Below, piece by piece: positions 14,776 to 57,739 of a DNA stretch of 64,000 bases. A program made the translations under genes and the position numbers. The notes below the pieces were generated by a model. That model searched no databases. It saw only the letters and a program-made list of their open reading frames with translations, and was not told the DNA's origin. Position 1 is the stretch's first letter; each line of letters opens with the position of its first letter. Origin of the DNA: Alphaproteobacteria bacterium (GTDB taxonomy: Bacteria > Pseudomonadota > Alphaproteobacteria > RF32 > CAG-239). Location: the NCBI GenBank assembly GCA_017480745.1, contig JAFUSA010000008.1:86090-150089 (forward strand), written 5' to 3'.

Positions 14776-15516
14776 TCAGTCAACCCAATCCATATCCCAC
14801 TCTTCTGAATTAGGATCAATATCGAAATGAAAGGATATAGCTGTATCATCAGGATCTGATTCTATAACTTCTGAACATTTTTCCGTAATTTTATCTACAG
14901 GAATCGGAAAAGATTTGAAGTAATAACCAATATCACTATACAAAAGAACTGCACTAACATTTGCTGATGTCCAATCTTGACTCAACAGTTCAATACATGC
15001 TTCTTCATTATCTCCAATGTAGTAATCAAGACTAAACGCCTGATTATCACCGCTTTTGGATTTAATTGTCGGACCTAACACAACCCCGTAACCAAAAGGA
15101 TTGGTAATAGACATAATCTTACCATCAGTTACAGTAATCATTTCATCAGGGAATATTTTGGCTTTTTTAACTATCGGACAGCCATTGTAAGCAGATTTGC
15201 CTGCATTATAGTCATAACATTGACAACCGGAAGCGGGGCAAGTGCCATCCTTACTACTACAATCCGCCCCTTCATAATTTCCCTGTGGTCCCCAAAAGGC
15301 ACGCACATTGCCGGCAATGAGAGTTATCTGTTCAATAGTTTTGTTAATACGATATTTCATCATCGCTTTTGAATATCCGGCGATTCCGCCAACACTCAAA
15401 ACACCAATTATAGCCAGCACGCCCAACATCTCAATCATTGAGCGACCGCTCTGTGCATTTTTCGTCATTGCGAGCGCAGCGTGGCAATCTATATTTTTTA
15501 TCTCTAAGTTTCTCAT
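14776..15516 (-). CDS. Prepilin-like protein, paralog 1 (class III signal peptide, G|RSMIEML)
   Basis: MRNLEIKNIDCHAALAMTKNAQSG|RSMIEMLGVLAIIGVLSVGGIAGYSKAMMKYRINKTIEQITLIAGNVRAFW. Glu at +5, hydrophobic helix, conserved EACIEL..DW, and a C-terminal Cys. Confidence 0.8.
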   Translation of the reverse strand: MRNLEIKNIDCHAALAMTKNAQSGRSMIEMLGVLAIIGVLSVGGIAGYSKAMMKYRINKTIEQITLIAGNVRAFWGPQGNYEGADCSSKDGTCPASGCQCYDYNAGKSAYNGCPIVKKAKIFPDEMITVTDGKIMSITNPFGYGVVLGPTIKSKSGDNQAFSLDYYIGDNEEACIELLSQDWTSANVSAVLLYSDIGYYFKSFPIPVDKITEKCSEVIESDPDDTAISFHFDIDPNSEEWDMDWVD

Positions 15517-15552
15517 AGTAAACTTCCTTTCGTATGAATTGTTGATATTACA

Positions 15553-15763
15553 TTAAAACAATACCGCCCCAACGAGGCGGCCGGAAGCTGCAAACTATTT
15601 TACACGAAATAGCGCCGCATATTAATACAAGATTCTATTCTGCGACCTTCCGGCCACTGCCGGAAATTTTTACGTCCATACGACGCGTGTAAAAGAGGCT
15701 TGCAGGCCCCAGACAAGTTATCTCATCTTATGTTTACTATACCATAAAAAAATCCAAAGTCAA
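15553..15763 (-). promoter_or_regulatory. Class A structured leader of pilin paralog 1
   Basis: Minus strand: TTGACT (15763-15758), 16-nt spacer, TGgTATAGT (-10 at 15741-15736). All class A blocks present. Terminator gccgcctcgttggggcggtattgtttt. Confidence 0.75.
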
Positions 15764-15811
15764 ATATTTTTTGCTAAGAAACCATCAAAAATTGCTATAC
15801 TATTTAAATAT

Positions 15812-15852
15812 AAAAATACCGCCGATCTGTTACAGAGTTGGCGGTATTTTTT
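15812..15852. terminator. Bidirectional terminator hairpin downstream of pssA
   Basis: ataccgcc...ggcggtat flanked by an A-run and a T-run. Confidence 0.7.
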
Positions 15853-15863
15853 GGTAAAATAGA

Positions 15864-16718
15864 TTATTCCGCGGTTTCGGAACGTGATTCTTCATACGCC
15901 TTTTTCTCGCGCATAAAACGCACAACCGTAAACGGAACGGAAAGCATATAACACAAAGTAAACAAACCCAGTGTCAACCACGGTTTAGTAATAAGACAGC
16001 TAACAAACATCGCTAACAAAATCATAATCGGTAAAAACCAATCGCTGCTGATTTTTGTTTTTTTCAACGATATAGTCGGAATGCGGCTAACCATTAAATA
16101 AGCCACCAAAACCATCACCACGCTACAAAAATACGGACTGCGTAATATAAAGGAAATTTCCGGAAAGTCAAATGACATTAACATTGGCATAACTCCGATT
16201 GCTGCCGCCATAGGCGCCGGAACTCCCACAAAATAATGCGACCAATATTCTGGAACAGCCGAATCTTCAAGCATAGTATTAAAGCGAGCCAAACGCATTG
16301 CCATTGCTGCTGAAAACATTAGAGTAAAAATCCATCCCCAATGCGGTAAATTACACAAACTCCATTGATACATTAAAATAGCCGGAGCCACTCCGAAACT
16401 AACAAAATCTGAAAGCGAATCCAGCTCGGCACCAAATTTTGAGGAAGCTTTCAATTTGCGTGCCACACGACCATCCAGTCCATCAAAAACACTGGCAAAA
16501 AAGATAAAAATCAATGCCATTGTCCATTTGCCCAAAATAGCATAACGAATTGTGGTTATACCCGAGCATAACGCCATCAAAGTCACAATATTCGGCGCCA
16601 TTTTACGGAACGGAATTTCCTTAAACTTGCCGATAGCCTTTTTTTTGATTACCGCTTGACCTTTAACCAAGGCTTTTACTTTTGCGGAAGTATTTTTTTT
16701 CATTATTTTCTCCATCAA
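15864..16718 (-). CDS. pssA: CDP-diacylglycerol--serine O-phosphatidyltransferase
   Basis: CDP-alcohol phosphatidyltransferase motif DGLDGRVARKLKASSKFGAELDSLSD. Multi-TM protein. Confidence 0.85.
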   Translation of the reverse strand: MMEKIMKKNTSAKVKALVKGQAVIKKKAIGKFKEIPFRKMAPNIVTLMALCSGITTIRYAILGKWTMALIFIFFASVFDGLDGRVARKLKASSKFGAELDSLSDFVSFGVAPAILMYQWSLCNLPHWGWIFTLMFSAAMAMRLARFNTMLEDSAVPEYWSHYFVGVPAPMAAAIGVMPMLMSFDFPEISFILRSPYFCSVVMVLVAYLMVSRIPTISLKKTKISSDWFLPIMILLAMFVSCLITKPWLTLGLFTLCYMLSVPFTVVRFMREKKAYEESRSETAE

Positions 16719-16940
16719 TAAGGGAGTTGTTAACAGAAATCGCGAATCAGATATAAGATATCAACAGACTTTGCTTACACCCCCATAAAGAATGCCGAAA
16801 CGCTGTTTCAGCCACATTCTCACAAATTAATCAGAGGAGAGTTTATCCTCTTTCCGCAGATAAATAAACACATTTTGAAAAAAAATTCAAGTTTTATCTT
16901 GCATTTTAATTTTTTCTATGTATAACATCATTTAGCAGAT

Positions 16941-17027
16941 GCGCTTGTGGCGGAATCGGTAGACGCTGCAGACTTAAAATCTGTTGGGATTTATCCCGTG
17001 CCAGTTCAAGTCTGGCCTAGCGCACCA
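16941..17027 (+). tRNA. tRNA-Leu (anticodon UAA), CCA encoded
   Basis: 87 nt. Acceptor gcgcttg/ctagcgc, anticodon loop cuUAAaa, long variable arm, T arm gccag-ttcaagt-ctggc. Confidence 0.9.
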
Positions 17028-17032
17028 AAACA

Positions 17033-17066
17033 AAAGCTTTCACTCTCAGTGTGGAAGCTTTTTTTG
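17033..17066 (+). terminator. Terminator after tRNA-Leu(UAA)
   Basis: aaagctttcac...gtggaagcttt followed by a T-run. Confidence 0.75.
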
Positions 17067-17133
17067 CCTCAAAAATACTGGGAGTAAATAACAAAGCGGT
17101 ATTTTCCTTAATTAGAAAATACCGCCTTTCTAT

Positions 17134-17220
17134 TGGTGCCCTGAAGAAGACTCGAACTTCCACTGCCTGAGGCAACATGCACCTGAAGCATGCGCGTCTA
17201 CCAATTCCGCCATCAGGGCA
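17134..17220 (-). tRNA. tRNA-Leu (anticodon CAG), CCA encoded
   Basis: Reverse complement tgccctgatggcggaattggtagacgcg-catgc-ttCAGgt-gcatg..., long variable arm, ends in ...gggcacca. Confidence 0.9.
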
Positions 17221-17314
17221 ACTTACCGCTTGAATATAGAAGTCTTTTATTTATCTGTCAACATATTTTTTATAATTTGTTGAATTATTACACTCAAAGC
17301 CTGAACTCGTTGCC

Positions 17315-17353
17315 GAAAGAAAAAATCCGCGATCTTTAATCTGGTCGCGGATT
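17315..17353 (-). terminator. Terminator after pilin paralog 2
   Basis: aatccgcga...tcgcggatt with a T-run on the minus strand. Confidence 0.7.
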
Positions 17354-17369
17354 TACTGTTGTAGAAATA

Positions 17370-17993
17370 TTACTTAACTTCTCCGCTGAGGGAGCTATCT
17401 GCGAAAAACATGATGACGGTATCATATCTATTAGTGCACATATTTACCGCTCCCTCCACACTAACCGGAACTTTTAAATCGTGCAAAGCTCCATCATCAT
17501 CACTGATAGTGATTATATTTATATTTGCTACTGTCCAGTCATAAGTTAATAGTTCAATACAAACTTCATCAGGAATATCATAATAGGCTATACTGAATGC
17601 TTTATTATCTTCCTCTTCTGCTAAACTAACCCCACCACCGAAAGGATTGGTAATAGAGGTGATTTTACCAGCCGCATTAATGGTAATCATTTCATCAGGG
17701 AATATTTTGGCTTTTTTAACTATCGGACAGCCATCACCGGAAGATTGCCCATAGCAACCGGCACTATTGCAATAACAACGCACCCCGATATAATTCTTCT
17801 GTGGTCCCCAAAAGGCATGCACATTTCCGGCAATGAGGGTTATTTGCTCAATGGTTTTATTGATTCTGTGTTTCATCATTGCTTTGCTATATCCGGCAAT
17901 TCCACCAACAGATAATACGCCGATTATGGCGAGCACTCCTAACATTTCTATCATTGAACGACCATTTTGATATTTAATTTCAAAGTTTCTCAT
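17370..17993 (-). CDS. Prepilin-like protein, paralog 2
   Basis: MRNFEIKYQNG|RSMIEMLGVLAIIGVLSVGGIAGYSKAMMKHRINKTIEQITLIAGNVHAFW...VCIELLTYDW. Confidence 0.8.
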   Translation of the reverse strand: MRNFEIKYQNGRSMIEMLGVLAIIGVLSVGGIAGYSKAMMKHRINKTIEQITLIAGNVHAFWGPQKNYIGVRCYCNSAGCYGQSSGDGCPIVKKAKIFPDEMITINAAGKITSITNPFGGGVSLAEEEDNKAFSIAYYDIPDEVCIELLTYDWTVANINIITISDDDGALHDLKVPVSVEGAVNMCTNRYDTVIMFFADSSLSGEVK

Positions 17994-18028
17994 AATCTTA
18001 TCTCCTAAATCATAGAGGTTAATACATT

Positions 18029-18260
18029 AAAAAAACTAACCGCCAAACGGCGGTCGGGAGAGGTAGAAAATCATATTAGTTGAAATGATTTCTGTGATCT
18101 TTAGACAATAGCCCTGTACATCCACCACAGACTCCCCAACCCACGTCGGAGATATTTCACATTCAATAACGATGTCAAAAACACCGCAACTAATAAGAGC
18201 TTTCTACAGCTCCGAACCGAAGTTCTAAGTTTATATTATCACAAAAAATCTAAAAGTCAA
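18029..18260 (-). promoter_or_regulatory. Class B structured leader of pilin paralog 2
   Basis: Minus strand: TTGACT (18260-18255), 16-nt spacer, TGaTAATAT. gaac-ttcg-gttc hairpin, atatctccgacgtgggttggggag, ctgtg..cacag, ctctcccgaccgccgtttggcggt + T-run. Confidence 0.75.
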
Positions 18261-18347
18261 AATATTTTTATCAGTATTTTTAACATTTTATTGAGTATTT
18301 TATTTTATAATGTCAGCCATTGCAAAACAGTATTTTTGAGGGAATTG

Positions 18348-21083
18348 ATGGCTAAGAAAAAAATAATAGAAGAAAAAAAAACACCGTGGTGGAAAACCGC
18401 TTTATGCAATATTTTCGGTATATTTTTTATTGTTTTTCCGTTGCTTGTTTATGCCGGATTGTCAGATTATCATGCGTCCGATCCCTCGTTTAATAAAGTT
18501 ACATCCGAAGAGGTGCAAAATTTTCTTGGGAAATTCGGTGCGTATAGCGCAGATTTTGTGTTAAGCTCATTTGGATTATCTTTGATTATCTTTTTGTTGG
18601 TGCCGATTTTTTGGGGTATCGGACTATTGAAATTTAAAAGCTTCAGCGAATATAAAAGCCGTATTTTTGCGTGGATTGTTGGTGTTTTATGTCTTGCCTG
18701 CTTTATTGATGTTGCTTGCAGTTCTTACATTGCAAGTCTGAACTTGCCGCATAATCTGACCGGAGATTGGAGTCATATAATCAGCCGATGGCTCAATAAT
18801 TATATCAATCAGGTTTCATTCCCTTATAATTCATTGATTATAAAATCTATAATTTTGTTTGTCAGTTTTTTGGCTTTCAATTTTTCTTCCGGCATAACAT
18901 TTAGTGTATGGGTAAAAATGTTTGGCAAAATAGGCGGTTTTTGCAAATCCGTTTACGCCGTATGTGTAAAAATATTCAAAAAAGCTGCCAATATTCGCAA
19001 CTTCAACGAGTTTCAAGAGCTAAATCCGCGCTATTTGCAAGAGAAGATAAAAAATAATTCTGCGCAAAAACATCAGAATGAACCAAAATTTGAAGAACAT
19101 GAAATCAATTTTGCTCCCAGTCTCAATGCTTCATCTTCACACAACATCAGTGTCACTCCGTTAACCGATGCGCTATTAGCACCAAGCATGAGTCTTAATT
19201 CTCAACCGACAAAATCCGCTTCTGTTTCCGGTTTAACCATAGAAATTCCGCAGTTCAATAATTCCGTTAATGATGTTTCTTCTCTAAACATAAACAAAAA
19301 TTCGTTAAATACCGAGCAAAACATTTTGACTCCTACTTTTGATTTTATGATTGATAGTGTAGAGGAAAATCCGTTGCCTAAAAAAGCAGAGAGCAAAGCC
19401 ACCACAAATAATATTTATCAAATTGACGGAGTTAAGAAATTTGTCAGCAAAATGCGCTCAAAAAATAAATCTGCCGATACAGCACAACAAGATGATTTAT
19501 TAACCGTTCCGACCTCGGCAACTGCTCCGCAGAAACCGTTGCAGGCACAGGTTGCTTTTAATGATTCGACAGCGATAGAAAAAAGCAAAGATGAATATGT
19601 TTTTCCGGATATTAATTTGCTTTCTGTTCCGCAAAATAAGGAAATTGAAATTGACGAAGAAGTATTAAAGAAAAATGCCGCACAGTTAGAACAGGTTTTG
19701 CAAGACTTTGGCATTCGCGGACAAATAGTTAAAGTTCGTCCCGGTCCGGTGGTTACACTTTATGAACTTGAACCGGCTCCGGGAATCCGCACAGCCAGAG
19801 TTATCGGTCTTTCAGATGATATAGCGCGTTCTATGGCGGTTGCTTCGGTGCGTATGGCGGTTGTTAGCGGACAAAAGACAATAGGTATTGAATTGCCTAA
19901 CTCGATTCGCCAAACTGTCGGCTTGCGAGAGCTTTTAGAAAGTAAAGATTTCAGAAACAGTAAAAATATTTTAAATGTTGCATTAGGTAAAGATATCGGT
20001 GGGCAGTATGTTTATGCAGATTTAGCCGGAATGCCGCATTTGTTGGTTGCCGGAACAACCGGTTCAGGTAAGTCGGTTGGTGTTAACTCAATGATTTTAT
20101 CTCTTCTTTACCGAATGACACCGGAGCAATGCAAATTTATTATGATTGACCCGAAATGCGTTGAGTTTTCTATGTATAATGGTATACCACATCTGCTTAC
20201 GCCGGTAATTACCGATCCGGCAAAGGCGGTGGTTGGCTTAAAATGGGCAGTGCAGGAAATGGAAAGCCGCAACCGTTCGTTGGCGCTGTTAAATGTGCGC
20301 AATATAAGCGGATATAACCGAAAAATTGAAGAAATCGCAAAATCTTCCAAAGAATTTAAAAAGACTATTCAAACCGGCTTTGACAAGGAAACAGGTAATC
20401 CTATTTATGAAGAACAGGTTATTGATACAACCCCAATGCCATACATAGTGATTGTGGTTGATGAAATGGCAGATTTAATGTTAGTTGCCGGAAAAGAGGT
20501 TGAAGCGGCAATTCAACGTTTGGCTCAAATGGGACGTGCGGTGGGTATTCACTTGATTATGGCCACACAACGTCCGTCGGTTGACGTTATTACCGGTGTG
20601 ATTAAAGCCAACTTCCCAAGCCGCATAAGCTTTCATGTGACTAACAAATTTGACAGCACAACCATTATCGGTGAAAAAGGAGCAGAACAATTGCTTGGAC
20701 GTGGTGATATGTTGTTTGTAGCCTCGGGAGATAAGCCACGGCGTGTTCACGGTTGTTTTGTGCCGGATGATGAAGTGGAAAAAATTGTTGAATTCATCAA
20801 AAAACAGGGTGAGCCTAAATATGTGGCAGAAGTTACTGCCGGTGAACTCAACAGTAAAGATTCCGGTCCGGTATTTGACAAAGGAGAAATGGGAGATGCC
20901 GGAGAAGATCTATATAGGCAAGCGGTGGACATTGTGCGCACAGATAAAAAAGCTTCCACCAGTTATGTTCAACGTAAACTGCGTATAGGATATAATCGTG
21001 CCGCAAACCTGATCGAACGTATGGAAGATGAAGGAATTGTCAGTCATCCGGATCATGTCGGTCGCCGTGAAGTCATCGGATAA
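18348..21083 (+). CDS. ftsK: DNA translocase FtsK
   Basis: N-terminal TM domain, low-complexity linker, motor domain with GTTGSGKSVGVN Walker A, and a C-terminal gamma (winged-helix) domain YVQRKLRIGYNRAANLIE. Confidence 0.95.
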   Translation: MAKKKIIEEKKTPWWKTALCNIFGIFFIVFPLLVYAGLSDYHASDPSFNKVTSEEVQNFLGKFGAYSADFVLSSFGLSLIIFLLVPIFWGIGLLKFKSFSEYKSRIFAWIVGVLCLACFIDVACSSYIASLNLPHNLTGDWSHIISRWLNNYINQVSFPYNSLIIKSIILFVSFLAFNFSSGITFSVWVKMFGKIGGFCKSVYAVCVKIFKKAANIRNFNEFQELNPRYLQEKIKNNSAQKHQNEPKFEEHEINFAPSLNASSSHNISVTPLTDALLAPSMSLNSQPTKSASVSGLTIEIPQFNNSVNDVSSLNINKNSLNTEQNILTPTFDFMIDSVEENPLPKKAESKATTNNIYQIDGVKKFVSKMRSKNKSADTAQQDDLLTVPTSATAPQKPLQAQVAFNDSTAIEKSKDEYVFPDINLLSVPQNKEIEIDEEVLKKNAAQLEQVLQDFGIRGQIVKVRPGPVVTLYELEPAPGIRTARVIGLSDDIARSMAVASVRMAVVSGQKTIGIELPNSIRQTVGLRELLESKDFRNSKNILNVALGKDIGGQYVYADLAGMPHLLVAGTTGSGKSVGVNSMILSLLYRMTPEQCKFIMIDPKCVEFSMYNGIPHLLTPVITDPAKAVVGLKWAVQEMESRNRSLALLNVRNISGYNRKIEEIAKSSKEFKKTIQTGFDKETGNPIYEEQVIDTTPMPYIVIVVDEMADLMLVAGKEVEAAIQRLAQMGRAVGIHLIMATQRPSVDVITGVIKANFPSRISFHVTNKFDSTTIIGEKGAEQLLGRGDMLFVASGDKPRRVHGCFVPDDEVEKIVEFIKKQGEPKYVAEVTAGELNSKDSGPVFDKGEMGDAGEDLYRQAVDIVRTDKKASTSYVQRKLRIGYNRAANLIERMEDEGIVSHPDHVGRREVIG

Positions 21084-21121
21084 GCCGAACAATCCTTTTT
21101 TTATAAAAACTGTTTGAATAA

Positions 21122-21186
21122 GTTACACTATTTAACCTAAAATAGCTATGAACTTCCGGCCGCCTCAGTGGGCGGTTGTTTTTATA
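21122..21186 (+). terminator. Terminator after ftsK, made from a 3' fragment of a class A leader
   Basis: cactatttaacctaaaatag + gaacttccggccgcctcagtgggcggttgttttt matches the last hairpin, third segment and terminator of class A leaders. Confidence 0.7.
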
Positions 21187-25714: not shown

Positions 25715-25940
25715 AATTTTGACCGCCACTGGCGGTCGGAGAGTTTACAAATCATACCACATCAATGATCCTGCTAATCTTTAGGTAAACTACCCTGAAC
25801 ATCCACTAACAGCTCCCCGACCAAATCGGAGATATATCATCTGTCAACGACGTTTTTTCCACGTCGAATGCGGTATGAGCTTGTAAAGGCTCTGAACCGA
25901 AGTTCTGAATTTATGATAACATAAAAAATGAAAAAGTCAA
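25715..25940 (-). promoter_or_regulatory. Class B structured leader of pilin paralog 3
   Basis: Minus strand: TTGACT (25940-25935), 16-nt spacer, TGtTATCAT. gaac-ttcg-gttc, cgacgt..acgtcg, tctccgatttggtcggggag, ctgttag..ttagcag, ctctccgaccgccagtggcggtc. The U-tract after the last hairpin is poor in this copy. Confidence 0.7.
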
Positions 25941-26006
25941 ATACTTTTTTGTTGCAATTTGCAAAATTTTCTGCAAATGCAAACGAAGTTGCGGATTTTT
26001 TAACAT

Positions 26007-27082: not shown

Positions 27083-27772
27083 TTAACATCCATCAGGTAA
27101 TGAACAGCGATTTAGTTCTTTTTGCCAATAGGTGGAACTTTGCTGGATATCAAATAAAAAACTTATAGTTACCTGATCAAGATCAGAACAAACATTTATG
27201 GCATCATCAATGGCTATCGGAGGCAATAGATAATACTCCGGTTCTTCTCCATTTGTCTTTATGTTATAAGCATATATAATAGAAGCAAGACTAAGTGATG
27301 TCCAATCTTGTGTCAGCAATTCAATACAAACTTCTTCATTATGTGTAAACAATCCTATTCTAAAAGCCTTCTCATCTCCCTCGCTTATCTTATCCGCAGC
27401 TGCCAGAGCAACACCATCTCCCCAAACATCTTTAATGTAATTATAATCACCATCCCACATTTCATCGGGCACAAGTTTGGCTTTTTTAATAACCTTTTTA
27501 TCATCCAATCCAGCATAGTTTCCTTGCGGAGCAAAAAACGAGCGTATGTTTCCGGCAATGAGAGTTATTTGTTCAATGGTTTTGTTGATCCTATACTTAG
27601 TCATCGCCTTTGAATATCCGGCGATTCCGCCAACAGAAAGCACGCCGATGATGGCAAGAACGCCTAACATCTCTATCATAGAGCGACCGCATTGCGTGGC
27701 AAAGCGACACTTATAGTCATGCCTGTGCATGTTAATAATTTCTTTGATACTTTTTATATCTAAGTTTTTCAT
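27083..27772 (-). CDS. Prepilin-like protein, paralog 4 (29-aa presequence)
   Basis: MKNLDIKSIKEIINMHRHDYKCRFATQCG|RSMIEMLGVLAIIGVLSVGGIAGYSKAMTKYRINKTIEQITLIAGNIRSFF...VCIELLTQDW. Confidence 0.8.
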   Translation of the reverse strand: MKNLDIKSIKEIINMHRHDYKCRFATQCGRSMIEMLGVLAIIGVLSVGGIAGYSKAMTKYRINKTIEQITLIAGNIRSFFAPQGNYAGLDDKKVIKKAKLVPDEMWDGDYNYIKDVWGDGVALAAADKISEGDEKAFRIGLFTHNEEVCIELLTQDWTSLSLASIIYAYNIKTNGEEPEYYLLPPIAIDDAINVCSDLDQVTISFLFDIQQSSTYWQKELNRCSLPDGC

Positions 27773-27810
27773 AGTATACTTCCTTTCATTTTTGTTGTTG
27801 ATATTACACT

Positions 27811-28017
27811 AAAACAACCGCCCGATAAGGCGGCCGGAAGTTCGAAACTACTTCTACATAAATAGTGTCATGTATTAAAAAAACTATCTATTCCATGACC
27901 TTCCAGCCAATGCCGGAAATATTAACGCCATTTACAGCGATGTAGAAAGAGGTTTCGACACCTCAGACAAGTTACCTCATCTTGTTTTTATGATAGCATA
28001 AAAAAACTAAAAGTCAA
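27811..28017 (-). promoter_or_regulatory. Class A structured leader of pilin paralog 4
   Basis: Minus strand: TTGACT (28017-28012), 16-nt spacer, TGcTATCAT. All class A blocks present. The gtcatg/catgac stem carries a double compensatory change. Confidence 0.75.
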
Positions 28018-30444: not shown

Positions 30445-30559
30445 TTTTCCAAATCCGATCAACACTTTTTTGCATTATAACACGTTTACGGAAAAATGGA
30501 AGATATTTTTTTGCATAAAGAAACGTAAAAATATATTTACGCATTTTTGCAAAAACAAA

Positions 30560-30764
30560 TTGACATAAGGGATTTTTTGGTTTAATATGATCCTCATGAT
30601 GAGGTAAAAATCATCTGGGGTCTCTAAGCCTCTTTAAACCCGTCTTTGTAGACGTAATTTTTCCAGCTTGGCTGGAAGGTCGTGGAATAGTTAATGAATG
30701 AATACGCGACACTGTTTGGTTTAAATAGTTTAGAGCTTCCAGCCACCTCTCGGAGGTGGTTTTA
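30560..30764 (+). promoter_or_regulatory. Class A structured leader of pilin paralog 5
   Basis: TTGACA 30560-30565, 17-nt spacer, TAATAT 30583-30588. The three repeated segments all carry ccagc/gctgg instead of ccggc/gccgg. Terminator ccacctc-tcg-gaggtgg + tttt. Confidence 0.75.
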
Positions 30765-30797
30765 ATGTAATTTTAATTAAGTGAAAGGAAGTTTACT

Positions 30798-31430
30798 ATG
30801 AGAAACTTAGAAATTAAAAATCAAAATGGCCGTAGTATGATAGAGATGCTTGGCGTGCTTGCCATAATCGGCGTGCTTTCTGTGGGCGGAATTGCCGGAT
30901 ACAGCAAAGCAATGCAAAAGTATAAAATCAATAAAACCATTGAACAAATAACTCTCATTGCCGGTAATATACGTGCTTTCTTTGCTAATCAACCCGAAGG
31001 AACTAAATACACGGATTTATATTCCGAAGGCGAAAAAGCACAAATACTAAAAAAAGCGAGGTTAATTCCTGATGAAATGTGGAATGGATCTAAAATAGAA
31101 AATATTTTTGGAGGTGCGACATACATTAGTTATTTGGGTACATCTGGTAATATTGATTATAGAAGTTTTCTCATTAATTTAGGAAACATACCACAAGAAG
31201 CTTGTATTGAACTTTTAACACATGATTGGAGCGCATCAGGAGTATATGTTATGGGTAATGTGAGTGCATTAGCTTATGGTGCTAAGGCAAGTCATGATAA
31301 TTGCGAAACAAAGGAAATTATGAGTGGACCTTATTCGTTTGGCTATACATATTGTGGTACATCAATGCCCATGGAAACAGCAATAGAATTTTGTAAGGAG
31401 GTAACAGATTTTTATTTAGGATTCCATTAA
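30798..31430 (+). CDS. Prepilin-like protein, paralog 5
   Basis: MRNLEIKNQNG|RSMIEMLGVLAIIGVLSVGGIAGYSKAMQKYKINKTIEQITLIAGNIRAFF...EACIELLTHDW. Confidence 0.8.
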   Translation: MRNLEIKNQNGRSMIEMLGVLAIIGVLSVGGIAGYSKAMQKYKINKTIEQITLIAGNIRAFFANQPEGTKYTDLYSEGEKAQILKKARLIPDEMWNGSKIENIFGGATYISYLGTSGNIDYRSFLINLGNIPQEACIELLTHDWSASGVYVMGNVSALAYGAKASHDNCETKEIMSGPYSFGYTYCGTSMPMETAIEFCKEVTDFYLGFH

Positions 31431-35236: not shown

Positions 35237-35980
35237 TTATCTGAAATAAAAGTGTAATTCAGCGTCATCAGAACAAGTGCTTGCGGCTTTATCAACGCTT
35301 ATCGGTAATGTTTTGTTGTAAATACAGCCAACATTATCATCATCCCAATAATCTCCCGTTACACAATCAAACATTACAGCACTGTCATCTTCATTTATTG
35401 CCAGAGCTATTAAATCGCTGACAGACCAATCATGTGTGGATAGTTCAATACAGGCTTCTTGCGGTAAACCATAAAGGGTTATCTTATAGCCCGTCACTGT
35501 TTTACTTCCGTTGCTGCCCCAATAATCGTAAATATAAACCGCACCACCAAAAGCATTGGTTATATTCGTGATATTACCGTCGGAATCTAATGTCAGCATT
35601 TCATCGGGTACAAGTTTGGCTTTTTTGATAATTGCTTTTCCTGTATCAGAATACGAAGATAATCCGTCATAATTTCCTTGCGGGCCGAAGAATGCCCGAA
35701 CATTACCGGCGATTAAAGTTATTTGCTCAATAGTTTTATTGATGCGATACTTTTGCATTGCCTTTGAATATCCGGCGATTCCGCCAACAGATAACACGCC
35801 GATGATGGCAAGAACACCAAGCATTTCTATCATTGAGCGACCATTCTGTCCGCCCTCAACATTTTGCACTTCTTTTGAGTTAAACAAAGCATTGCAATAA
35901 ATATTCTGCGGAGCGAACGAATGTTCGCGACCTGATGCGTTAGCATCACAAATAGTTTGTTTGAAATTACAATTTCCCAT
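35237..35980 (-). CDS. Prepilin-like protein, paralog 6 (46-aa presequence)
   Basis: MGNCNFKQTICDANASGREHSFAPQNIYCNALFNSKEVQNVEGGQNG|RSMIEMLGVLAIIGVLSVGGIAGYSKAMQKYRINKTIEQITLIAGNVRAFF...EACIELSTHDW. Confidence 0.78.
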   Translation of the reverse strand: MGNCNFKQTICDANASGREHSFAPQNIYCNALFNSKEVQNVEGGQNGRSMIEMLGVLAIIGVLSVGGIAGYSKAMQKYRINKTIEQITLIAGNVRAFFGPQGNYDGLSSYSDTGKAIIKKAKLVPDEMLTLDSDGNITNITNAFGGAVYIYDYWGSNGSKTVTGYKITLYGLPQEACIELSTHDWSVSDLIALAINEDDSAVMFDCVTGDYWDDDNVGCIYNKTLPISVDKAASTCSDDAELHFYFR

Positions 35981-36015
35981 AGTAAACTTTCTTTCATTTT
36001 TGTTGATATTACACT

Positions 36016-36222
36016 AAAACAACCGCCCGATAAGGCGGCCGGAAGTTCGTAACTACTGCAATTAATAGTGTCGCATATTCAACCCATAGTCTTATTCTGC
36101 GACCTTCCGGCCACAAAGCCGGAAATTTTTACGTCTTTAAGACGAATTGCAAGAGGTTACGACACCTCAGACAAGTTACCTCATCTTGATTTTATGATAG
36201 CATAACAAAAACTGAAAGTCAA
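36016..36222 (-). promoter_or_regulatory. Class A structured leader of pilin paralog 6
   Basis: Minus strand: TTGACT (36222-36217), 17-nt spacer, TATCAT (36199-36194). Canonical class A blocks. Terminator ggccgccttatcgggcggttgtttt. Confidence 0.75.
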
Positions 36223-36301
36223 ACAAAAAATTTAAATCAGCCATTTTTTATTAGTCACGGATTATTTTTTGAGCAGATTTTGATTTCTCAGAAAAAATAA
36301 T

Positions 36302-36531
36302 TTGACATTTTAAAATTTTGTGATATAGTAATCACAGAACTACGGTTCGGGGCTTTCATCGGCTCTCATTACGCTTGGTGTGTAAAAAACACTATCATAA
36401 GGTATGTAATATCTCCGATTGGGTCGGGGAGACTGCAATGGATGTTCAGAGCTTTTGCTTAAAGATTGTAGTGATTATTAGCGTAATGTAATTGATGAAC
36501 TCCCCTGCCGCCGTTTGGCGGTTAAATTTTT
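36302..36531 (+). promoter_or_regulatory. Class B structured leader of pilin paralog 7
   Basis: TTGACA 36302-36307, 16-nt spacer, TGaTATAGT (-10 at 36324-36329). gaac-tacg-gttc, atatctccgattgggtcggggag, ctgcaa..ttgtag, actcccctgccgccgtttggcggt + T-run. Confidence 0.75.
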
Positions 36532-36565
36532 AATGTGTTAACCTTTAATTTTAGGAGATAAAATT

Positions 36566-37213
36566 ATGATAAACTATAATAATGAAAACGGTCGTTCGAT
36601 GATAGAGATGCTGGGCGTATTAGCTATCATTGGTGTTTTAAGTGTTGGTGGTATCGCTGGATATACCAAGGCGATGATGAAATACAGAATCAATAAAACC
36701 ATCGAGCAAATTACTCTTATTGCCGGCAATGTGAGAACGTTTTTCGCAAATCAAAAAACAATTTCATTAAGATTTAATAAAGATGGTCCACAGGATGAAG
36801 CAAGTGAAAAAATTGTCAGAAAGGCAAGGTTAGTGCCGGAAGAAATGATGTATTTGAATGGTGATGGCGAAATAGTGTATCTTGTAAGTACGTTTGGTGA
36901 ACGTTTTTTTGTAATAGGAAGTCCATCAAGCAAGTTCTTTTCCTTATATTTTTATAATCTTCCACAGGAGGCTTGTATTGAATTGTTATCGCATGATTGG
37001 AATAACGCTAATGCTTCTGCAATTAGTGTTAATGGCGGTGAATATCTTACTTTTTTTCTTCCAGTAAACGTGGATGATGCCGTGAAAGCCTGTGATTACA
37101 TCAACCGTAGCCTCGATAGTAATGGTGATTATAATGTATCGATATTATTTGACTACACCGGAGATATGACGGATGCTGTAAATGAAACAAAAGAAATATT
37201 GAGCAAATTATAA
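36566..37213 (+). CDS. Prepilin-like protein, paralog 7
   Basis: MINYNNENG|RSMIEMLGVLAIIGVLSVGGIAGYTKAMMKYRINKTIEQITLIAGNVRTFF...EACIELLSHDW. Confidence 0.8.
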   Translation: MINYNNENGRSMIEMLGVLAIIGVLSVGGIAGYTKAMMKYRINKTIEQITLIAGNVRTFFANQKTISLRFNKDGPQDEASEKIVRKARLVPEEMMYLNGDGEIVYLVSTFGERFFVIGSPSSKFFSLYFYNLPQEACIELLSHDWNNANASAISVNGGEYLTFFLPVNVDDAVKACDYINRSLDSNGDYNVSILFDYTGDMTDAVNETKEILSKL

Positions 37214-42050: not shown

Positions 42051-42257
42051 TTGACTTTTGAGCTTTTTATGATATAGTAAAAGCAAGATGAGGTAACTTG
42101 TCTGAGGTGTCAGAACCTCTTGCAATTCGTCTTAAAGACGTAAAAATTTCCGGCTTTGTGGCCGGAAGGTCGTGGAATAAAACTATAGGTTGAATATGCG
42201 GCACTATTAATTGCAGTAGTTCTGAACTTCCGGCCGCCCTTATCGGGTGGTTGTTTT
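42051..42257 (+). promoter_or_regulatory. Class A structured leader of pilin paralog 8 (reference copy)
   Basis: TTGACT 42051-42056, 16-nt spacer, TGaTATAGT (-10 at 42073-42078). Segment 1 ttccggc 42148-42154, segment 2 gccggaagg 42161-42169, segment 3 cttccggcc 42227-42235. Terminator cggccgccc/gggtggttg + tttt to 42257. Confidence 0.78.
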
Positions 42258-42292
42258 AGTGTAATATCAACAAAAATGAAAGGAAGTTTACT

Positions 42293-42970
42293 ATGAAAAA
42301 CTTAGAAATAAAAAATCAAAACGGTCGTTCAATGATAGAGATGTTAGGTGTTCTTGCCATCATCGGTGTTTTGAGTGTCGGTGGAATCGCCGGATATTCC
42401 AAAGCTATGCAAAAATATAGAATTAACAAAACCATTGAGCAAATAACACTTATTACCGGAAACGTTCGCTCATTTTTTGCCAGTCAAGGAAATTATAGGG
42501 GATTAAGTTCAACTAATACAGGAAAAGCGATTATCAAAAAAGCTAAACTTGTACCTGATGAAATGTTAGAGCTCAATGCCGATGGTACCATAAAGCAAAT
42601 TAACAACTCTTTCGGCGGAACGGTTTTGATTGAAGCTGCTAATAAATCAAGTTCAGCTAATGGAAGTGAGCCTATATACATTTATGGTGATGAAAAAGCT
42701 TTTGCTTTATCTTTCAGCGATATTCCGCAGGAGGCCTGTATTGAATTGGTAACACAAGATTGGAGCGAGGCCAACATCGGAGCCCTCCAAAAAGGAGGTT
42801 TTATTCCTACTAAGAATAATGTAATTTTTACACCGGCAAGCATCGATATCGCCACGAATATGTGTGGTTCTACAAATGAAATATCTTTTTTTGCTGATGT
42901 TGATACTAATTCCACTTATTGGAAAGGTCTTTTGGGTGATGAAAAGTTGGTGGGTACTATCGGTAATTAG
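42293..42970 (+). CDS. Prepilin-like protein, paralog 8
   Basis: MKNLEIKNQNG|RSMIEMLGVLAIIGVLSVGGIAGYSKAMQKYRINKTIEQITLITGNVRSFF...EACIELVTQDW...NMCG. Confidence 0.8.
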   Translation: MKNLEIKNQNGRSMIEMLGVLAIIGVLSVGGIAGYSKAMQKYRINKTIEQITLITGNVRSFFASQGNYRGLSSTNTGKAIIKKAKLVPDEMLELNADGTIKQINNSFGGTVLIEAANKSSSANGSEPIYIYGDEKAFALSFSDIPQEACIELVTQDWSEANIGALQKGGFIPTKNNVIFTPASIDIATNMCGSTNEISFFADVDTNSTYWKGLLGDEKLVGTIGN

Positions 42971-47754: not shown

Positions 47755-48348
47755 ATGGAAAAAGACGAATTACAGAATTTTTTAATTAACATAGGGCGCT
47801 CTATGGTGCAGGAAAACGGCACAGATGCGCTGACAGTGCGCAAATTGTCCGAAGCTTCCAAATGCTCGGTCGGCGCCATATATAACCAGTTTTCCAATAT
47901 GGATAACTATATCGTGATCCAAAATTGCATAACTCTTGATGAGTTACACGCTGCTTTAAGCAAAGTGCAACGTTCCAACAACGTGTTCATCGATATGAAT
48001 AATTATTTGCAGACTTTTGTTGACTATGTTTTGGATAATAAAAATTTATGGTATATGCTTTATACCTTTCACTTGAAACATAATAAATATCGCTATTCAT
48101 CATTTTATTTGCGCAAAATAATAAAAATTGTGCGTATTGTTAATGAGCTGCTAAAAGATGCCACTCCGCGAGTTGAAAGACCTGAACGTCTGCTTTCGGC
48201 TCAGGTTTTATGGCTGACAATGTTTTCACTCAGCGCCTTGCTCACTAAGGATATTTTAGACTCTTTTTCCAAAATCAATCGCCGCAATTTGTGTGAAATT
48301 GTTTTGAATACTTTTGTTGCCGGTATGACTGTGCTGGAAAATAGGTAA
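47755..48348 (+). CDS. TetR-family transcriptional regulator
   Basis: N-terminal HTH: GTDALTVRKLSEASKCSVGAIYNQF. Confidence 0.8.
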   Translation: MEKDELQNFLINIGRSMVQENGTDALTVRKLSEASKCSVGAIYNQFSNMDNYIVIQNCITLDELHAALSKVQRSNNVFIDMNNYLQTFVDYVLDNKNLWYMLYTFHLKHNKYRYSSFYLRKIIKIVRIVNELLKDATPRVERPERLLSAQVLWLTMFSLSALLTKDILDSFSKINRRNLCEIVLNTFVAGMTVLENR

Positions 48349-48360
48349 TTTTTAAACAAA

Positions 48361-48546
48361 GCGCTCGCCGACGTGTTGAAAGCTACCTAATAGAATAGTG
48401 TCGCATATTATACAATTTATTCTGCGACCTTCCGACCATTGTCGGAAACATTTTACGTCCTGTCTGACGCTATTAGAGAGGCTTTCAAACCTCAGACAAG
48501 TTACCTCATCTTACTTAGATACTATCACAAAAAATGTAAAAGTCAA
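48361..48546 (-). ncRNA. Orphan class A leader-like RNA with promoter but no downstream gene
   Basis: Minus strand: TTGACT (48546-48541), 16-nt spacer, TGaTAGTAT. Then gatgaggtaacttgtctgaggtttgaaagcctc, cgtc..gacg, tttccgacaatggtcggaagg, gtcgca..tgcgac, cactatt. The 3' part diverges and runs into the convergent tetR stop. Confidence 0.6.
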
Positions 48547-50859: not shown

Positions 50860-51651
50860 TTAATACCACGTTACTCCCAGATCAGCGGCTTCCTTCTTAT
50901 AAAAACTTTCATCTGCATCAAAAAATAAAGATACACTTGTACTAATTACATCATCTTCAGGATCGACGTACGCATATGAACATATGTTGACAGCATTATC
51001 AATAGATATTGGTAAAGAAAAACTTGCTTTATCTATAGTTTGCAAGTTATTTACCGAAATAAAACTGACATTTGCGTTAGTCCAGTCATGTGTTAAAAGT
51101 TCTATACAAGCTTCTACGTTATTTCCTATGTCATACGTAACATCAAATGCTTGATCTTCACTATTAAATGATTTATAATTTGCATTTAATACAACTTTTC
51201 CACCAAAAACATTTTCCAAAGCCGTTTTGTCACTATTCCACATTTCATCAGGGACTAATTTAGCTTTGTGTATTATTTTTCTGCCATTAGTTTCATTGCT
51301 ATTCAATCCTTTATAATTCCTCTGCGGAGCAAAAAATGTTCGCACATTGCCGGCAATTAAAGTTATTTGCTCAATAGTTTTGTTGATGCGATATTTGGTC
51401 ATTGCTTTGCTGTATCCGGCGATTCCGCCAACCGAAAGAACGCCAATAATTGCCAACACGCCAAGCATTTCAATCATTGAACGTCCGCTCTGCGTGGCAA
51501 AACCACACTTATAGTCATGCCTCGATTCCGCAGGAATCGTCAAGTCATCTTCTGCTTGATTAAAATTAATTTGAAGATCCCTTGACGCATTCGCCTTTGC
51601 AAGGCTCTGCGAGGGATGACTTTTTATATTTTTTATTTTTAAGTTATTCAT
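50860..51651 (-). CDS. Prepilin-like protein, paralog 9 (56-aa presequence)
   Basis: MNNLKIKNIKSHPSQSLAKANASRDLQINFNQAEDDLTIPAESRHDYKCGFATQSG|RSMIEMLGVLAIIGVLSVGGIAGYSKAMTKYRINKTIEQITLIAGNVRTFF...EACIELLTHDW. Confidence 0.78.
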   Translation of the reverse strand: MNNLKIKNIKSHPSQSLAKANASRDLQINFNQAEDDLTIPAESRHDYKCGFATQSGRSMIEMLGVLAIIGVLSVGGIAGYSKAMTKYRINKTIEQITLIAGNVRTFFAPQRNYKGLNSNETNGRKIIHKAKLVPDEMWNSDKTALENVFGGKVVLNANYKSFNSEDQAFDVTYDIGNNVEACIELLTHDWTNANVSFISVNNLQTIDKASFSLPISIDNAVNICSYAYVDPEDDVISTSVSLFFDADESFYKKEAADLGVTWY

Positions 51652-51689
51652 AGTAAACTTCCTTTCATCTGAATTGTTGATATTACATT

Positions 51690-51895
51690 AAAACAACCGC
51701 CCGATAAAGGCGGCCGGAAGTTGACGACTATTTAAGATTAGATAGTGTGGCTTATTTGGTTCACCCTTATTCAACCACCTTCCAGCCATACTGGAAAATT
51801 TTTACGTCTTCAAAGACGACTTCAAAGAGGTTTTCAGACCTCAGACAAGTTACCTTATCTTGTTTTCACTATATCATAAAAAACGCAAAAGTCAA
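51690..51895 (-). promoter_or_regulatory. Class A structured leader of pilin paralog 9
   Basis: Minus strand: TTGACT (51895-51890), 16-nt spacer, TGaTATAGT. The gtggtt/aagccac stem is compensatory relative to gtcgca/tgcgac. Terminator ggccgcctttatcgggcggttgtttt. Confidence 0.75.
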
Positions 51896-52753: not shown

Positions 52754-53707
52754 TTAGTCAAATAATTGAACACCGCGAGAAAGTCTGATTCTCTGCGATT
52801 CTATTGTTGTTGATAAATTTAATTTTCCGCTCTTAATTATGCCGCGCAACTGGTCTCCCTTTGTGCCATCCGGATTAGCAAACACATATTCAAGTTCCGG
52901 ATGCTTAGGAACACCTACCAAACGTTGGTGTAACACACTGAGAACACCGTTACCCACCAAATCATACGACATATCTTCCGAAATACCGCTGGCAGCCGCA
53001 TATTTTACGATTGACTGAATGGCATCCGTTACAGTACTTGCGTGAATAGTAGAAAGCACTAAGTGGCCGGAAATAGCCGCACGCAGAGCTTCTGATGCAA
53101 TTTCAGGATCACGTATCTCACCCAAATAAACATAACGTGGTTTAGAACGCAACATGGACTTCAAACCCTCAGACCACGAACCTCCCGGAGGTGTCATCTG
53201 TTTGCAAATACCAAGTTCGCCGTTTACCGTATGATACGTGCCATCCAAAGGCATTTCAACCGGATCTTCCAACGTAAACGCATATCCGCCGTCACGAATT
53301 AAATACTCGCGCAACAACGCAGATAATGTTGTTGTTTTACCGGAACCAGTTGTTCCTGCCATTAATATCAAGCCGGAAGCACCGCTGAGCGATTTAAGAT
53401 ATTTAAGCAGATGATCCTCAATTCCAAGCTTATTGATATCCGGAACTGTATGAGGCATTTTACGTGCACAATACTGCTGACCATCTAATGTAACCGTTCT
53501 TTCCACACGATAGTTAAGTCCTTTGTATTTTACCAAATACGAAGGATTATTCCCATCGTATGTATCCATCACTGTTTGATAAAATTCCTGATAATCATCC
53601 GGCTCAACCTGAATCAAGCCGCTCGGAGTTTTACGTCCCCAAATATAGGCCGTTCCATCCGGAATAATATAAATATCGGAAAAATCAACTTCATTTACTG
53701 TAGCCAT
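52754..53707 (-). CDS. Type II/IV secretion-family ATPase, PilT-like (317 aa)
   Basis: Walker A GTTGSGKTTT, Asp box FTLEDPVE, Walker B/Arg LGEIRD, His box SGHLVLSTIHAS. Confidence 0.8.
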   Translation of the reverse strand: MATVNEVDFSDIYIIPDGTAYIWGRKTPSGLIQVEPDDYQEFYQTVMDTYDGNNPSYLVKYKGLNYRVERTVTLDGQQYCARKMPHTVPDINKLGIEDHLLKYLKSLSGASGLILMAGTTGSGKTTTLSALLREYLIRDGGYAFTLEDPVEMPLDGTYHTVNGELGICKQMTPPGGSWSEGLKSMLRSKPRYVYLGEIRDPEIASEALRAAISGHLVLSTIHASTVTDAIQSIVKYAAASGISEDMSYDLVGNGVLSVLHQRLVGVPKHPELEYVFANPDGTKGDQLRGIIKSGKLNLSTTIESQRIRLSRGVQLFD

Positions 53708-57420: not shown

Positions 57421-57449
57421 TTTATCTCCTCTATTTGATAGGTTTAATT

Positions 57450-57687: not shown

Positions 57688-57709
57688 ACTATTTATAATA
57701 TTACTTACA

Positions 57710-57739
57710 CCAAAAATTCAGGGGCGGAAAACCGCCCCT
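57710..57739 (-). terminator. Terminator immediately after rplO
   Basis: aggggcgg-aaaa-ccgcccct with gaattttt following on the minus strand. Confidence 0.75.

Follow-up and report, generated by a model that had tools for sequence, protein, structure and literature searches.

What kind of control region stands in front of a pilin-like gene whose transcript carries short segments that can pair in more than one way? The question is raised by a locus in a 64,000-nucleotide (nt) stretch of an alphaproteobacterial genome assembly (GCA_017480745.1, contig JAFUSA010000008.1; GTDB lineage RF32, CAG-239), hereafter called the window. The leader copy under study, taken with its promoter and the start codon of its gene, spans 30560-30800 (+) and is referred to as the 30.7-kilobase (kb) copy; other copies are likewise named after their positions. 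The original prediction, made from the letters of the window, viewed this leader as an anti-antiterminator, antiterminator and terminator arrangement, in which segment 2 pairs either with segment 1, leaving the terminator free to form, or with segment 3, which overlaps the terminator. Our analysis supports this view, as all three helices covary among approximately 100 leaders from many species. The further suggestion that the leader is a transcription-attenuation switch also gained support from the mutually exclusive helices, a U-tract behind nearly every terminator hairpin, balanced energies and a variant without the terminator. We propose that the 30.7-kb region serves a monocistronic pilin gene as its 5' leader and works as a cis-acting RNA switch whose junction and pseudoknot domain senses an effector, likely a small ligand, and we hold this proposal with belief and doubt in about equal measure.

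Organization of the 30.7-kb leader

The leader and the start of its gene contain the following parts.

30560-30588 (+): promoter, with a -35 box TTGACA (30560-30565), a 17-nt spacer and a -10 box TAATAT (30583-30588); 10/12 matches.
30598-30602 / 30611-30615 (+): P1a, the 5'-terminal hairpin GAUGA/UCAUC, found in the minimum free energy (MFE) fold; 5/5 pairs change on both sides, 89.9% paired.
30617-30621 / 30628-30632 (+): P1b, hairpin GGGGU/GCCUC; 93.7% paired.
30622-30627 (+): Y, the P1b loop CUCUAA, which pairs with Y' (UUAGAG, 30730-30735).
30633-30640 (+): X (UUUAAACC), the 5' strand of a long-range helix with X' (30718-30725); in the MFE fold.
30641-30645 / 30650-30654 (+): P2, hairpin CGUCU/AGACG, followed by the A-rich linker UAAUUUU; 96.7% paired, 4/4 pairs covary.
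30660-30667 (+): segment 1 (UUUCCAGC), the 5' strand of P3, which is the anti-antiterminator.
30669-30679 (+): segment 2 (UGGCUGGAAGG), partner of segment 1 (P3) or of segment 3 (antiterminator).
30679-30684 / 30705-30710 (+): P5, GUCGUG/CGCGAC, abutting segment 2; 99.1% paired, 6/6 pairs covary.
30686-30689 and 30701-30704 (+): two AAUA motifs inside P5, with a small variable hairpin.
30711-30735 (+): junction ACUGUU, then X' (GGUUUAAA, 30718-30725), UAGU (30726-30729) and Y' (30730-30735).
30736-30745 (+): segment 3 (CUUCCAGCCA), the switching strand; segment 2 and the ribosome-binding site are alternative partners of its 5' half.
30741-30766 (+): terminator, AGCCACCUC (30741-30749), loop UCG, GAGGUGGUU (30753-30761) and tail UUUUAAU; in the MFE fold.
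30784-30800 (+): ribosome-binding site AAAGGAAGUUU, with GGAAGUU at 30787-30793 and the start codon at 30798-30800.
30798-31430 (+): pilin-like gene (Pfam PilS and N_methyl).

Transcription probably starts near 30595, approximately 7 nt past the -10 box. The 42-kb copy has the promoter TTGACT-16-TATAGT at 42051-42078, and leaders of other species are preceded by TTGAC-N17-TAnnnT. The MFE fold of 30589-30775 is the terminator state (-63.1 kcal/mol, z = -4.96), and the 3' half of segment 3 doubles as the 5' arm of the terminator.

A perfect palindrome, TTTTTGCAAAAA, lies at 30544-30555, a few bases 5' of the -35 box. It recurs 5' of the -35 box in the 42.0-kb and 28.0-kb copies and could serve the pilin promoters as a common transcription-factor site. 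The P1a loop (30599-30607) reads AUG AGG UAA, with AGA in the 15.6-kb copy and AUA in the 51.8-kb copy. We rejected a leader peptide at this position, as it is confined to the species of the window. The same loop holds a second GAGGU, a potential partner for ACCUC of P1b, and is not conserved in other species. P2 (30641-30654) together with UAAUUUUU was flagged as terminator-like by a simple scan; it is probably not functional as a terminator because of the A residues before the U-run.

Collection of related leaders

A covariance model of the leader class designated class A was built from seven window copies and a hand-drawn nested structure. Relatives were fetched from a collection with one genome per species by a gapped pattern taken from a conserved part of the leader, which fixed GGAAGGU, both AAUA motifs, CNCURU and UAG. 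At least 99 stretches matched, nearly all of which were titled uncultured Alphaproteobacteria metagenome-assembled genomes (MAGs) from the gut or rumen of human, rabbit, roe deer, sheep and yak. The window and 99 related loci combined gave 120 leaders with the class A model (alignment A3), and covariation of the segments was counted in 118 distinct related leaders. Within the species of the window, the exact pilin protein of the 30.7-kb copy was found on metagenome contigs where the leader is identical or has one single-nucleotide polymorphism (SNP); four same-species contigs differed in the leader by 0-1 SNP.

Three mutually exclusive helices

We verified the segments of the 30.7-kb copy in the raw sequence, and the predicted letters and positions were exact (segment 1 ttccAgc at 30661-30667, segment 2 gcTggaagg at 30671-30679 and segment 3 cttccAgcc at 30736-30744). 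The alignments also agreed with the variants described for two other copies: at 27811 segment 2 is GCUGG and segments 1 and 3 are CCGGC, which places a G.U pair in both helices, and at 51690 UUCCAG/CUGGAA occurs with segment 3 CCGGC. To these we add the 3.4-kb copy with GGUCGG and a truncated 48.4-kb copy with CCGAC/GUCGG. Chance recurrence is low, with three matches to the motif TTCCRGCNNNGCYGGAAGG at no more than 2 mismatches against 0.03 expected, and eight window copies that match a long gapped leader pattern against none in 100 shuffles.

The helix of segments 2 and 3, which is absent from the model that made the alignment, was paired in 99.5% of cases across the 118 leaders. Pair (301,427) occurred as UA 61, CG 19, AU 13 and UG 3, and pair (300,428) as CG 73, UA 14, UG 3 and GC 2, with no unpaired case at either position; pair (299,429) occurred as GC 65, AU 12 and GU 12. 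P3, the helix of segments 1 and 2, was 94.1% paired with many U.G pairs. The terminator hairpin was 96.2% paired and covaried in 7/7 pairs. Its base re-uses segment 3 and covaries as well, with pair (427,481) as AU 62 and GU 33, pair (428,480) as GC 50, GU 44 and AU 12, and pair (429,479) as CG 67, UA 31 and UG 10. Since segment 2 and the 3' half of segment 3 (columns 427-431) are each claimed by two helices, these pairings exclude one another. The topology thus involves four regions, paired 1:2, 2:3 and 3:4.

Wobble pairs are concentrated in P3. Pair 227:302 was U.G in 45 leaders and pair 228:301 was G.U in 28, and the same positions of segment 2 had 0 and 3 wobbles in the helix with segment 3. 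Two pairing registers for segment 1 were considered and rejected in favor of a single register with tandem U.G and G.U wobbles. In alignment-free swap tests, a leader's own partner was preferred for the 2:3 helix in 97/98 cases and for segment 3 with the terminator 3' arm in 92/98. For P3, a leader's own variable segment 2 tetramer gave -8.79 kcal/mol compared to -5.54 kcal/mol with those of other leaders, and was better in 87/94.

These results bear on another explanation, in which the complementarity is a by-product of repeat duplication or of a palindromic terminator and no alternative pairing takes place. Segments 1 and 3 are indeed near-identical in the window copies, which are paralogous. 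Across species, however, the two segments diverge and each still pairs with segment 2: a large group of leaders has CUUCUGGC as segment 1 and CUUCCAGC as segment 3, both facing GCUGGAAG, with tandem wobbles in P3 and an antiterminator that is entirely Watson-Crick. Moreover, three core variants shift all segments together, and shuffle and slide controls reject chance. The by-product explanation is contradicted by the covariation, the own-partner preference and the P3 swap tests, and we give it almost no credence.

Terminator, energies and ribosome-binding site

The predicted overlap of segment 3 with the 5' arm of a terminator was borne out by a GC-rich hairpin, which was called terminator-like at 42231-42253; a simple terminator scan made such a call in two copies. 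A U-tract (at least 5 T in 8 nt) followed the hairpin in 112/114 leaders. Median energies were -9.8 kcal/mol for P3, -10.1 kcal/mol for the terminator, -15.45 kcal/mol for the antiterminator (2:3) and -3.5 kcal/mol for the terminator without the shared nucleotides. The antiterminator was stronger than P3 in 107/114 leaders, and P3 plus terminator was about as stable as antiterminator plus remaining terminator. This energy balance is as expected for a switch.

Four leaders (L028, L038, L048 and L093) have the full upstream domain and segments 1-3 and lack the terminator. In these, AGGGAG and the start codon come 8-10 nt past segment 3 (CUUCCUAUCG), and the local fold joins AGGGAG to CUUCCU. A variant in which segment 3 pairs with the ribosome-binding site when there is no terminator marks segment 3 as the switching strand. 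One putative sensor is joined to two expression platforms, either the terminator or sequestration of the ribosome-binding site.

Pairing with the ribosome-binding site was also indicated in the other class A leaders. GGAAG occurred upstream of 50/84 leader genes compared to 8/320 other genes in the same DNA (Fisher p ~1e-32, uncorrected for relatedness), and in 29/84 compared to 1/320 the 5' half of segment 3 (AACUUCC) matched the gene's own ribosome-binding site over 7 or more consecutive Watson-Crick pairs. In the MFE fold of the read-through RNA, the ribosome-binding site is paired with GAGCUUCC, around the terminator hairpin. The ribosome-binding site is probably a fifth covarying region. 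We rejected such pairing as a feature of every class: in GGAUG/CAUCC variants the site is of the ordinary GGAG kind and shows little complementarity, and the fifth segment is therefore limited to class A. Free segment 3 would mean OFF at both levels, and paired segments 2 and 3 would mean ON.

Junction and pseudoknot domain

In the nested state (P3 plus terminator), 95.1% of 4637 cells were paired and 40/42 pairs changed on both sides, and the covariation score was 0.653 compared to 0.248 for shuffled alignments (0/500 reached 0.653) and at most 0.108 for slid partners. The long-range helix X:X' (7-9 base pairs, bp) closes a four-way junction; it was 95.9% paired, changed on both sides in 7/7 pairs and showed all four Watson-Crick types at most positions. 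Y:Y', formed by the P1b loop and the strand just 5' of segment 3, lies outside the covariance model and was 97.9% paired, with pair (75,417) as GC 44, CG 32, AU 31 and UA 4. P1b, which is of the GAGG/CCUC type across leaders, forms an H-type pseudoknot with Y:Y'. P5 begins at the nucleotide after GGAAG and encloses the two AAUA motifs and a small hairpin. P1b, X:X', Y:Y', P2 and P5 were each 94-99% paired with changes on both sides, and make up a conserved covarying domain before the expression platform. Run independently on A3, RNAalifold recovered P1a, Y:Y', X:X', P2, P3, P5 and the terminator; its covariation term was -12.13 kcal/mol.

AAUA was present in 117-118/120 leaders, both motifs having been demanded by the retrieval pattern. 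As unpaired bases that might form a ligand pocket, the two AAUA motifs, CACUAU and UAGU are near-invariant but required by that pattern; they are kept in most of 13 leaders that were found with the model only and are absent from class B (see below). A short stem ACUA/UAGU around X' is tentative, with changes on both sides in 7 cells only. Compared to the original prediction, the additional elements are X:X', the pairing of the P1b loop with Y', P5, the terminator 3' arm as a fourth region, the ribosome-binding site as a fifth, and the sister classes.

The complexity of this domain has to be weighed against two other ways of setting the same switch. One is a trans-acting RNA-binding protein, which would either bind the P5 internal loop or junction, or a fold that contains P3, and hold segment 2 with segment 1 in a PyrR-like manner, or else stabilize the antiterminator like BglG/LicT. 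PyrR uses a three-tier anti-antiterminator, antiterminator and terminator arrangement on pyr leaders, the same as seen here, and proteins of the BglG/LicT type stabilize antiterminators. A large surface-protein regulon with many copies per genome would suit a global protein regulator, and the regulated genes show no metabolite logic. On the other hand, the P3 loop is conserved in neither sequence nor length (for example UUUGUG, AUUG, UUUAUG, GAAA and, in rabbit-gut MAGs, an inserted hairpin), which sets it apart from the loops that proteins typically bind. The pseudoknotted domain, with approximately 150 nt and strongly covarying long-range helices, also exceeds the known sites of attenuation proteins in complexity, and within the window we found no gene for a candidate protein in linkage with the leaders. 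We consider a protein-set switch unlikely.

The other is a constitutive or physically tuned attenuator with no dedicated effector, in which a race between segment 3 invasion and the terminator sets the read-through fraction. Transcription speed, nucleoside triphosphates or Mg2+, temperature and NusA/NusG would be its modulators, and the structure would also stabilize a highly expressed mRNA. Near-isoenergetic states and a weakened P3 could give a fixed partition. Abundant envelope-protein mRNAs often have long stabilizing 5' untranslated regions (UTRs), for example ompA, and ligand logic is not evident here. However, strong purifying selection on two long-range and pseudoknot helices and on an internal loop in many species is excessive for a hairpin race, and one sensor with two expression platforms is typical of regulated switches. 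A switch of this effector-free kind is likewise improbable.

Proposed mechanism

An effector-controlled switch is the best reading because the junction and pseudoknot domain is elaborate and conserved and because one sensor serves two platforms. In our model, the nascent RNA would fold P1a, P1b and P2, after which P3 (segments 1 and 2) would form and stack on P5. When X' and Y' emerge, they would pair with X and with the P1b loop and thereby close the four-way junction and the H-type pseudoknot, which would bring segment 3, located 3 nt past Y', beside the P5/P3 junction. In the ON state, segment 3 would oust segment 1 from segment 2 and form an all-Watson-Crick helix of 9-11 bp that stacks on P5. 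This helix would remove the lowest 3-4 terminator pairs and hide the CUUCC anti-Shine-Dalgarno sequence, letting polymerase continue into the gene and leaving the ribosome-binding site accessible. In the OFF state, segment 3 would be free: the terminator would be based on its 3' half, and the GGAAGU ribosome-binding site might be captured by its 5' half. The sensor would be the folded domain of junction and pseudoknot, whose bound state would favor pairing of segments 2 and 3 and turn the gene on. We infer from sequence that termination and read-through occur, that an effector exists, what its nature is and in which direction it acts; a small ligand with an ON response is weakly favored over other versions.

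Several points weigh against this model. The retrieval pattern inflates how invariant GGAAGGU, both AAUA motifs, CACUAU and UAG appear, and bases that the pattern demanded are no evidence by their invariance. The sequences are interrelated, with many paralogs and orthologs, and because leaders are related by descent, the cell counts exceed the true number of independent events. Fitting by the covariance model applied to the P3 columns but not to those of the 2:3 and Y:Y' helices. The terminator of the 30.7-kb copy (30741-30761) has four U only and was missed by the simple scan, and the overlap of antiterminator and terminator is 2-4 nt, reaching 6 in some copies. That X:X' and Y:Y' can coexist with the 2:3 helix is argued by chain topology only. 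Finally, the regulated genes (pilins, porins and lipoproteins) give no pointer to a metabolite.

A broader proposal, possible but somewhat doubtful in our view, is that these leaders constitute a new orphan riboswitch class, or sister classes (GGAAG, GGGAG and GGAUG cores, and class B with a different P5 internal loop), of uncultured gut and rumen Alphaproteobacteria. The sensor would be a four-way junction that a long-range helix and an H-type pseudoknot lock in place, and a five-segment relay acting on termination and on sequestration of the ribosome-binding site would co-regulate, in each genome, dozens of genes for pilins, Opa-like porins, BspA-type proteins and lipoproteins.

Leader copies in the window

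By nhmmer and alignment, the window contains seven full class A copies of approximately 185-190 nt each, one truncated copy and one 3' fragment. Leaders start directly after a sigma-70-type promoter and end 25-35 nt before a start codon on the same strand.

30589-30770 (+): class A copy under study.
42078-42261 (+): class A copy, 188.8 bits, before pilin-like gene 42293-42970.
36012-36194 (-): class A copy, 192.5 bits, before pilin-like gene 35237-35980 (-).
27807-27990 (-): class A copy, 190.7 bits, before pilin-like gene 27083-27772 (-).
51686-51868 (-): class A copy, 176.2 bits, before pilin-like gene 50860-51651 (-).
15553-15736 (-): class A copy, 179.5 bits, before pilin-like gene 14776-15516 (-).
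3303-3485 (+): class A copy, 182.5 bits, before a 91-residue open reading frame (ORF) at 3516-3791 with no Pfam match.
48351-48519 (-): truncated class A copy, 124.6 bits, which keeps P1a to P5 and X' and lacks segment 3, terminator and downstream gene.
18029-18236 (-): class B leader, 23 bits, E 1e-4, before pilin-like gene 17370-17993 (-).

The truncated copy runs into the 3' end of a TetR-like ORF (47755-48348, +) and is probably the remnant of a lost pilin gene. At 21105-21186 (+), approximately 20 nt past the ftsK stop codon (21083), the 3' half of a leader occurs alone, with X', Y', segment 3, the terminator and its U-tract; it seems to have been re-used as the ftsK terminator. Two tRNA genes, 16941-17024 (+) and 17137-17219 (-), lie between the class A and class B pilin loci.

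Class B and other variants

Four class B copies were identified in the window, at 18029-18236 (-), ~25745-25975 (-), ~57410-57715 (-) and ~36243-36570 (+), in front of other pilin paralogs. Their architecture is that of class A, with P1a (UUCG loop), P1b, X:X', Y:Y', P2, the three segments and the terminator. In the 18029-18236 copy the core consists of UCUCCGAC as segment 1, GUUGGGGAG as segment 2 and CUCUCCCGACC as segment 3, followed by the terminator; across copies it is UCUCCGAC / GUCGGGGAG / CUCCCCUGCC. The P5 internal loop (GGUGGAUGUUCAG..UAAAGAUU) is unlike that of class A, and the ribosome-binding site is an ordinary AGGAG. All segments are changed together in GGGGAG/CUCCCC/UCUCC, the core of the window class B leaders, and in GGAUG/CAUCC/CAUUC, which was found in L047, L063 and L033.

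Other departures were observed in individual groups. L005, L009, L014, L020, L022 and their kin have a long extra hairpin (CCUUUUUUGA..UCAAAAAAGG) and a 4-bp mini-hairpin GGUC/GACC at the position of segment 1, a replacement that looks like a much weaker anti-antiterminator. Five rabbit-gut leaders (L005, L008, L014, L040 and L072) carry, between terminator and ribosome-binding site, an insertion of approximately 200 nt that resembles a miniature inverted-repeat transposable element (MITE) and has the terminal inverted repeats AAACGTACGTTTTTTGCAAC / GTTGCATTAAAGGTACGTTT. The sister loci L009 and L054 lack this insertion, and their ribosome-binding site directly follows the terminator. A stand-alone small RNA (sRNA) in the rabbit-gut MAGs was accordingly rejected, the gap between terminator and pilin gene being the MITE-like insertion.

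Regulated genes and distribution

Six of the seven full window copies precede type IVb-like pilin genes (Pfam PilS and/or Bundlin, several also N_methyl), whose mature N-terminus reads GRSMIEMLGVLAIIGVLS. These genes are monocistronic and scattered among rplS, trmD, rimM, rpsP, ffh, pheA, mlaC, nrdD, ftsK, recA, rplM/rpsI and a class A penicillin-binding protein gene. In three paralogs, 27083-27772 (-), 50860-51651 (-) and 14776-15516 (-), the N-terminal extension before the GRSMIEML cleavage motif ranges from ~8 to ~60 residues. No convincing linked regulator or gene of cyclic di-GMP (c-di-GMP) metabolism was found among the window neighbors, which comprise housekeeping genes, a T2SSE-family ATPase and a TetR-like ORF. 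The ATPase gene (type II/IV secretion; 52754-53707, -) is the only one resembling pilus machinery among the scanned window ORFs.

Sixty of 104 predicted downstream products were pilins of the same family. Other products examined included Opa-like outer-membrane beta-barrels, a BspA-type leucine-rich repeat (LRR) protein, several lipoprotein families, one XRE-type helix-turn-helix protein and small proteins of unknown function. Many leader copies are present per genome. We rejected the idea that the leader is universal to the pilin family: among 80 pilin loci collected from metagenomes by protein similarity, class A was found in 5 and a class B-like leader in 1, and most loci had short ordinary 5' UTRs with AGGAG sites. 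The leader is thus tied to the clade and not to the pilin family.

The genomic setting also speaks to a trans-acting role, in which the terminated leader of approximately 190 nt would serve as an sRNA or protein sponge and the gene would be expressed by leakage. Every leader has its own promoter, terminator and U-tract, and the window contains a copy with no downstream gene (48351-48519) and a 3' fragment (21105-21186), as might be expected of such an RNA. However, the gene-less copies are truncated remnants, and 48351-48519 has no terminator. In approximately 90% of leaders a ribosome-binding site and an ORF follow 10-40 nt downstream on the same strand, and the rabbit-gut exceptions are explained by the MITE-like insertion. 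In addition, the variable helices are complementary internally and not toward a shared target. We regard a trans-acting role as very unlikely and retain the cis-acting switch.

Implications

If the broader proposal is true, a single signal, such as a second messenger, would reprogram the cell surface, and the sister classes would let subsets of pilins answer different signals. If the switch model holds, a poorly known group of uncultured gut bacteria would run its whole repertoire of surface appendages and antigens, including many paralogous type IV pilins, porins, LRR adhesins and lipoproteins, through one RNA device, which in the window occurs in at least 12 leader copies within 64 kb. Finding the effector would reveal what these gut bacteria sense when making pili. 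The leader is also an unusually clear natural case in which anti-antiterminator, antiterminator, terminator and anti-Shine-Dalgarno helices are all backed by covariation; such support is rare for expression platforms because they are usually too variable to align. In addition, the family may be used as an RNA marker of the clade in metagenomes.

Comparison with known systems

The 1:2, 2:3 and 3:4 topology, with 3:4 as the terminator, is shared with trp-type leaders. These differ from the present family, which has no conserved leader peptide: 69/115 leaders lack an AUG-initiated ORF of at least 6 codons that reaches segment 1, and in the rest it is inconsistent in position and length. The absence of a conserved leader peptide excludes ribosome stalling as the input.

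The pyr attenuators controlled by PyrR and the platforms of S-box (S-adenosylmethionine, SAM-I) riboswitches resemble the leader in having three mutually exclusive tiers, with an upstream hairpin that sequesters the 5' strand of the antiterminator and an antiterminator that has nucleotides in common with the 5' arm of the intrinsic terminator immediately before the gene. In contrast, the leader has neither a conserved loop of the PyrR type nor an Rfam aptamer match, its putative sensor consists of a four-way junction and an H-type pseudoknot, and its targets are surface proteins instead of biosynthetic enzymes.

Switches and thermometers that sequester the Shine-Dalgarno sequence (ROSE, fourU and translational riboswitch platforms) are similar in that GGAAGU or AGGGAG is the predicted partner of CUUCC(U) in segment 3. 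The likeness is closest in L028, L038, L048 and L093, where sequestration is the only platform, whereas most leaders couple it to a terminator and to an upstream competitor, segment 2, which mimics the ribosome-binding site.

A candidate structured RNA, HMP2_12443, is listed in Table S1 of Fremin and Bhatt 2021 (PMC8040213) with a length of 56 bp, 29 instances, one covarying base and no taxonomy, and with N_methyl, IV_pilin, HflK, HflC and Band_7 as neighboring domains. It adjoins Band_7 genes, as does the leader copy at 42078-42261; it is far shorter than the leader, and its entry there has no structural or mechanistic description. HMP2_12443, compared by description only, may be a fragment of the leader.

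In function, the nearest analog is the c-di-GMP-II riboswitch of Clostridioides difficile, which is found upstream of the type IV pilin operon CD3513-03 (PMC11477304). Like the leader, it is pseudoknotted, controls type IV pilin genes and occurs in multiple copies per genome before surface or adhesion genes. Its architecture and conserved nucleotides are different, and the leader matches neither c-di-GMP-I nor c-di-GMP-II in Rfam. Against Rfam 15 at the gathering threshold, the whole window gave two tRNAs only and no leader match; a search with all 4227 families at E<=10 over 30450-30850 and E<=5 over 15400-18400 gave weak chance matches only, outside or unrelated to the leader. No description of the leader was found in the literature on pilin genes with riboswitches or attenuation and on RF32 gut Alphaproteobacteria. 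Placed beside these systems, the leader is a new family within a known kind of regulator, and its expression platform is unusually complete in its covariation support.

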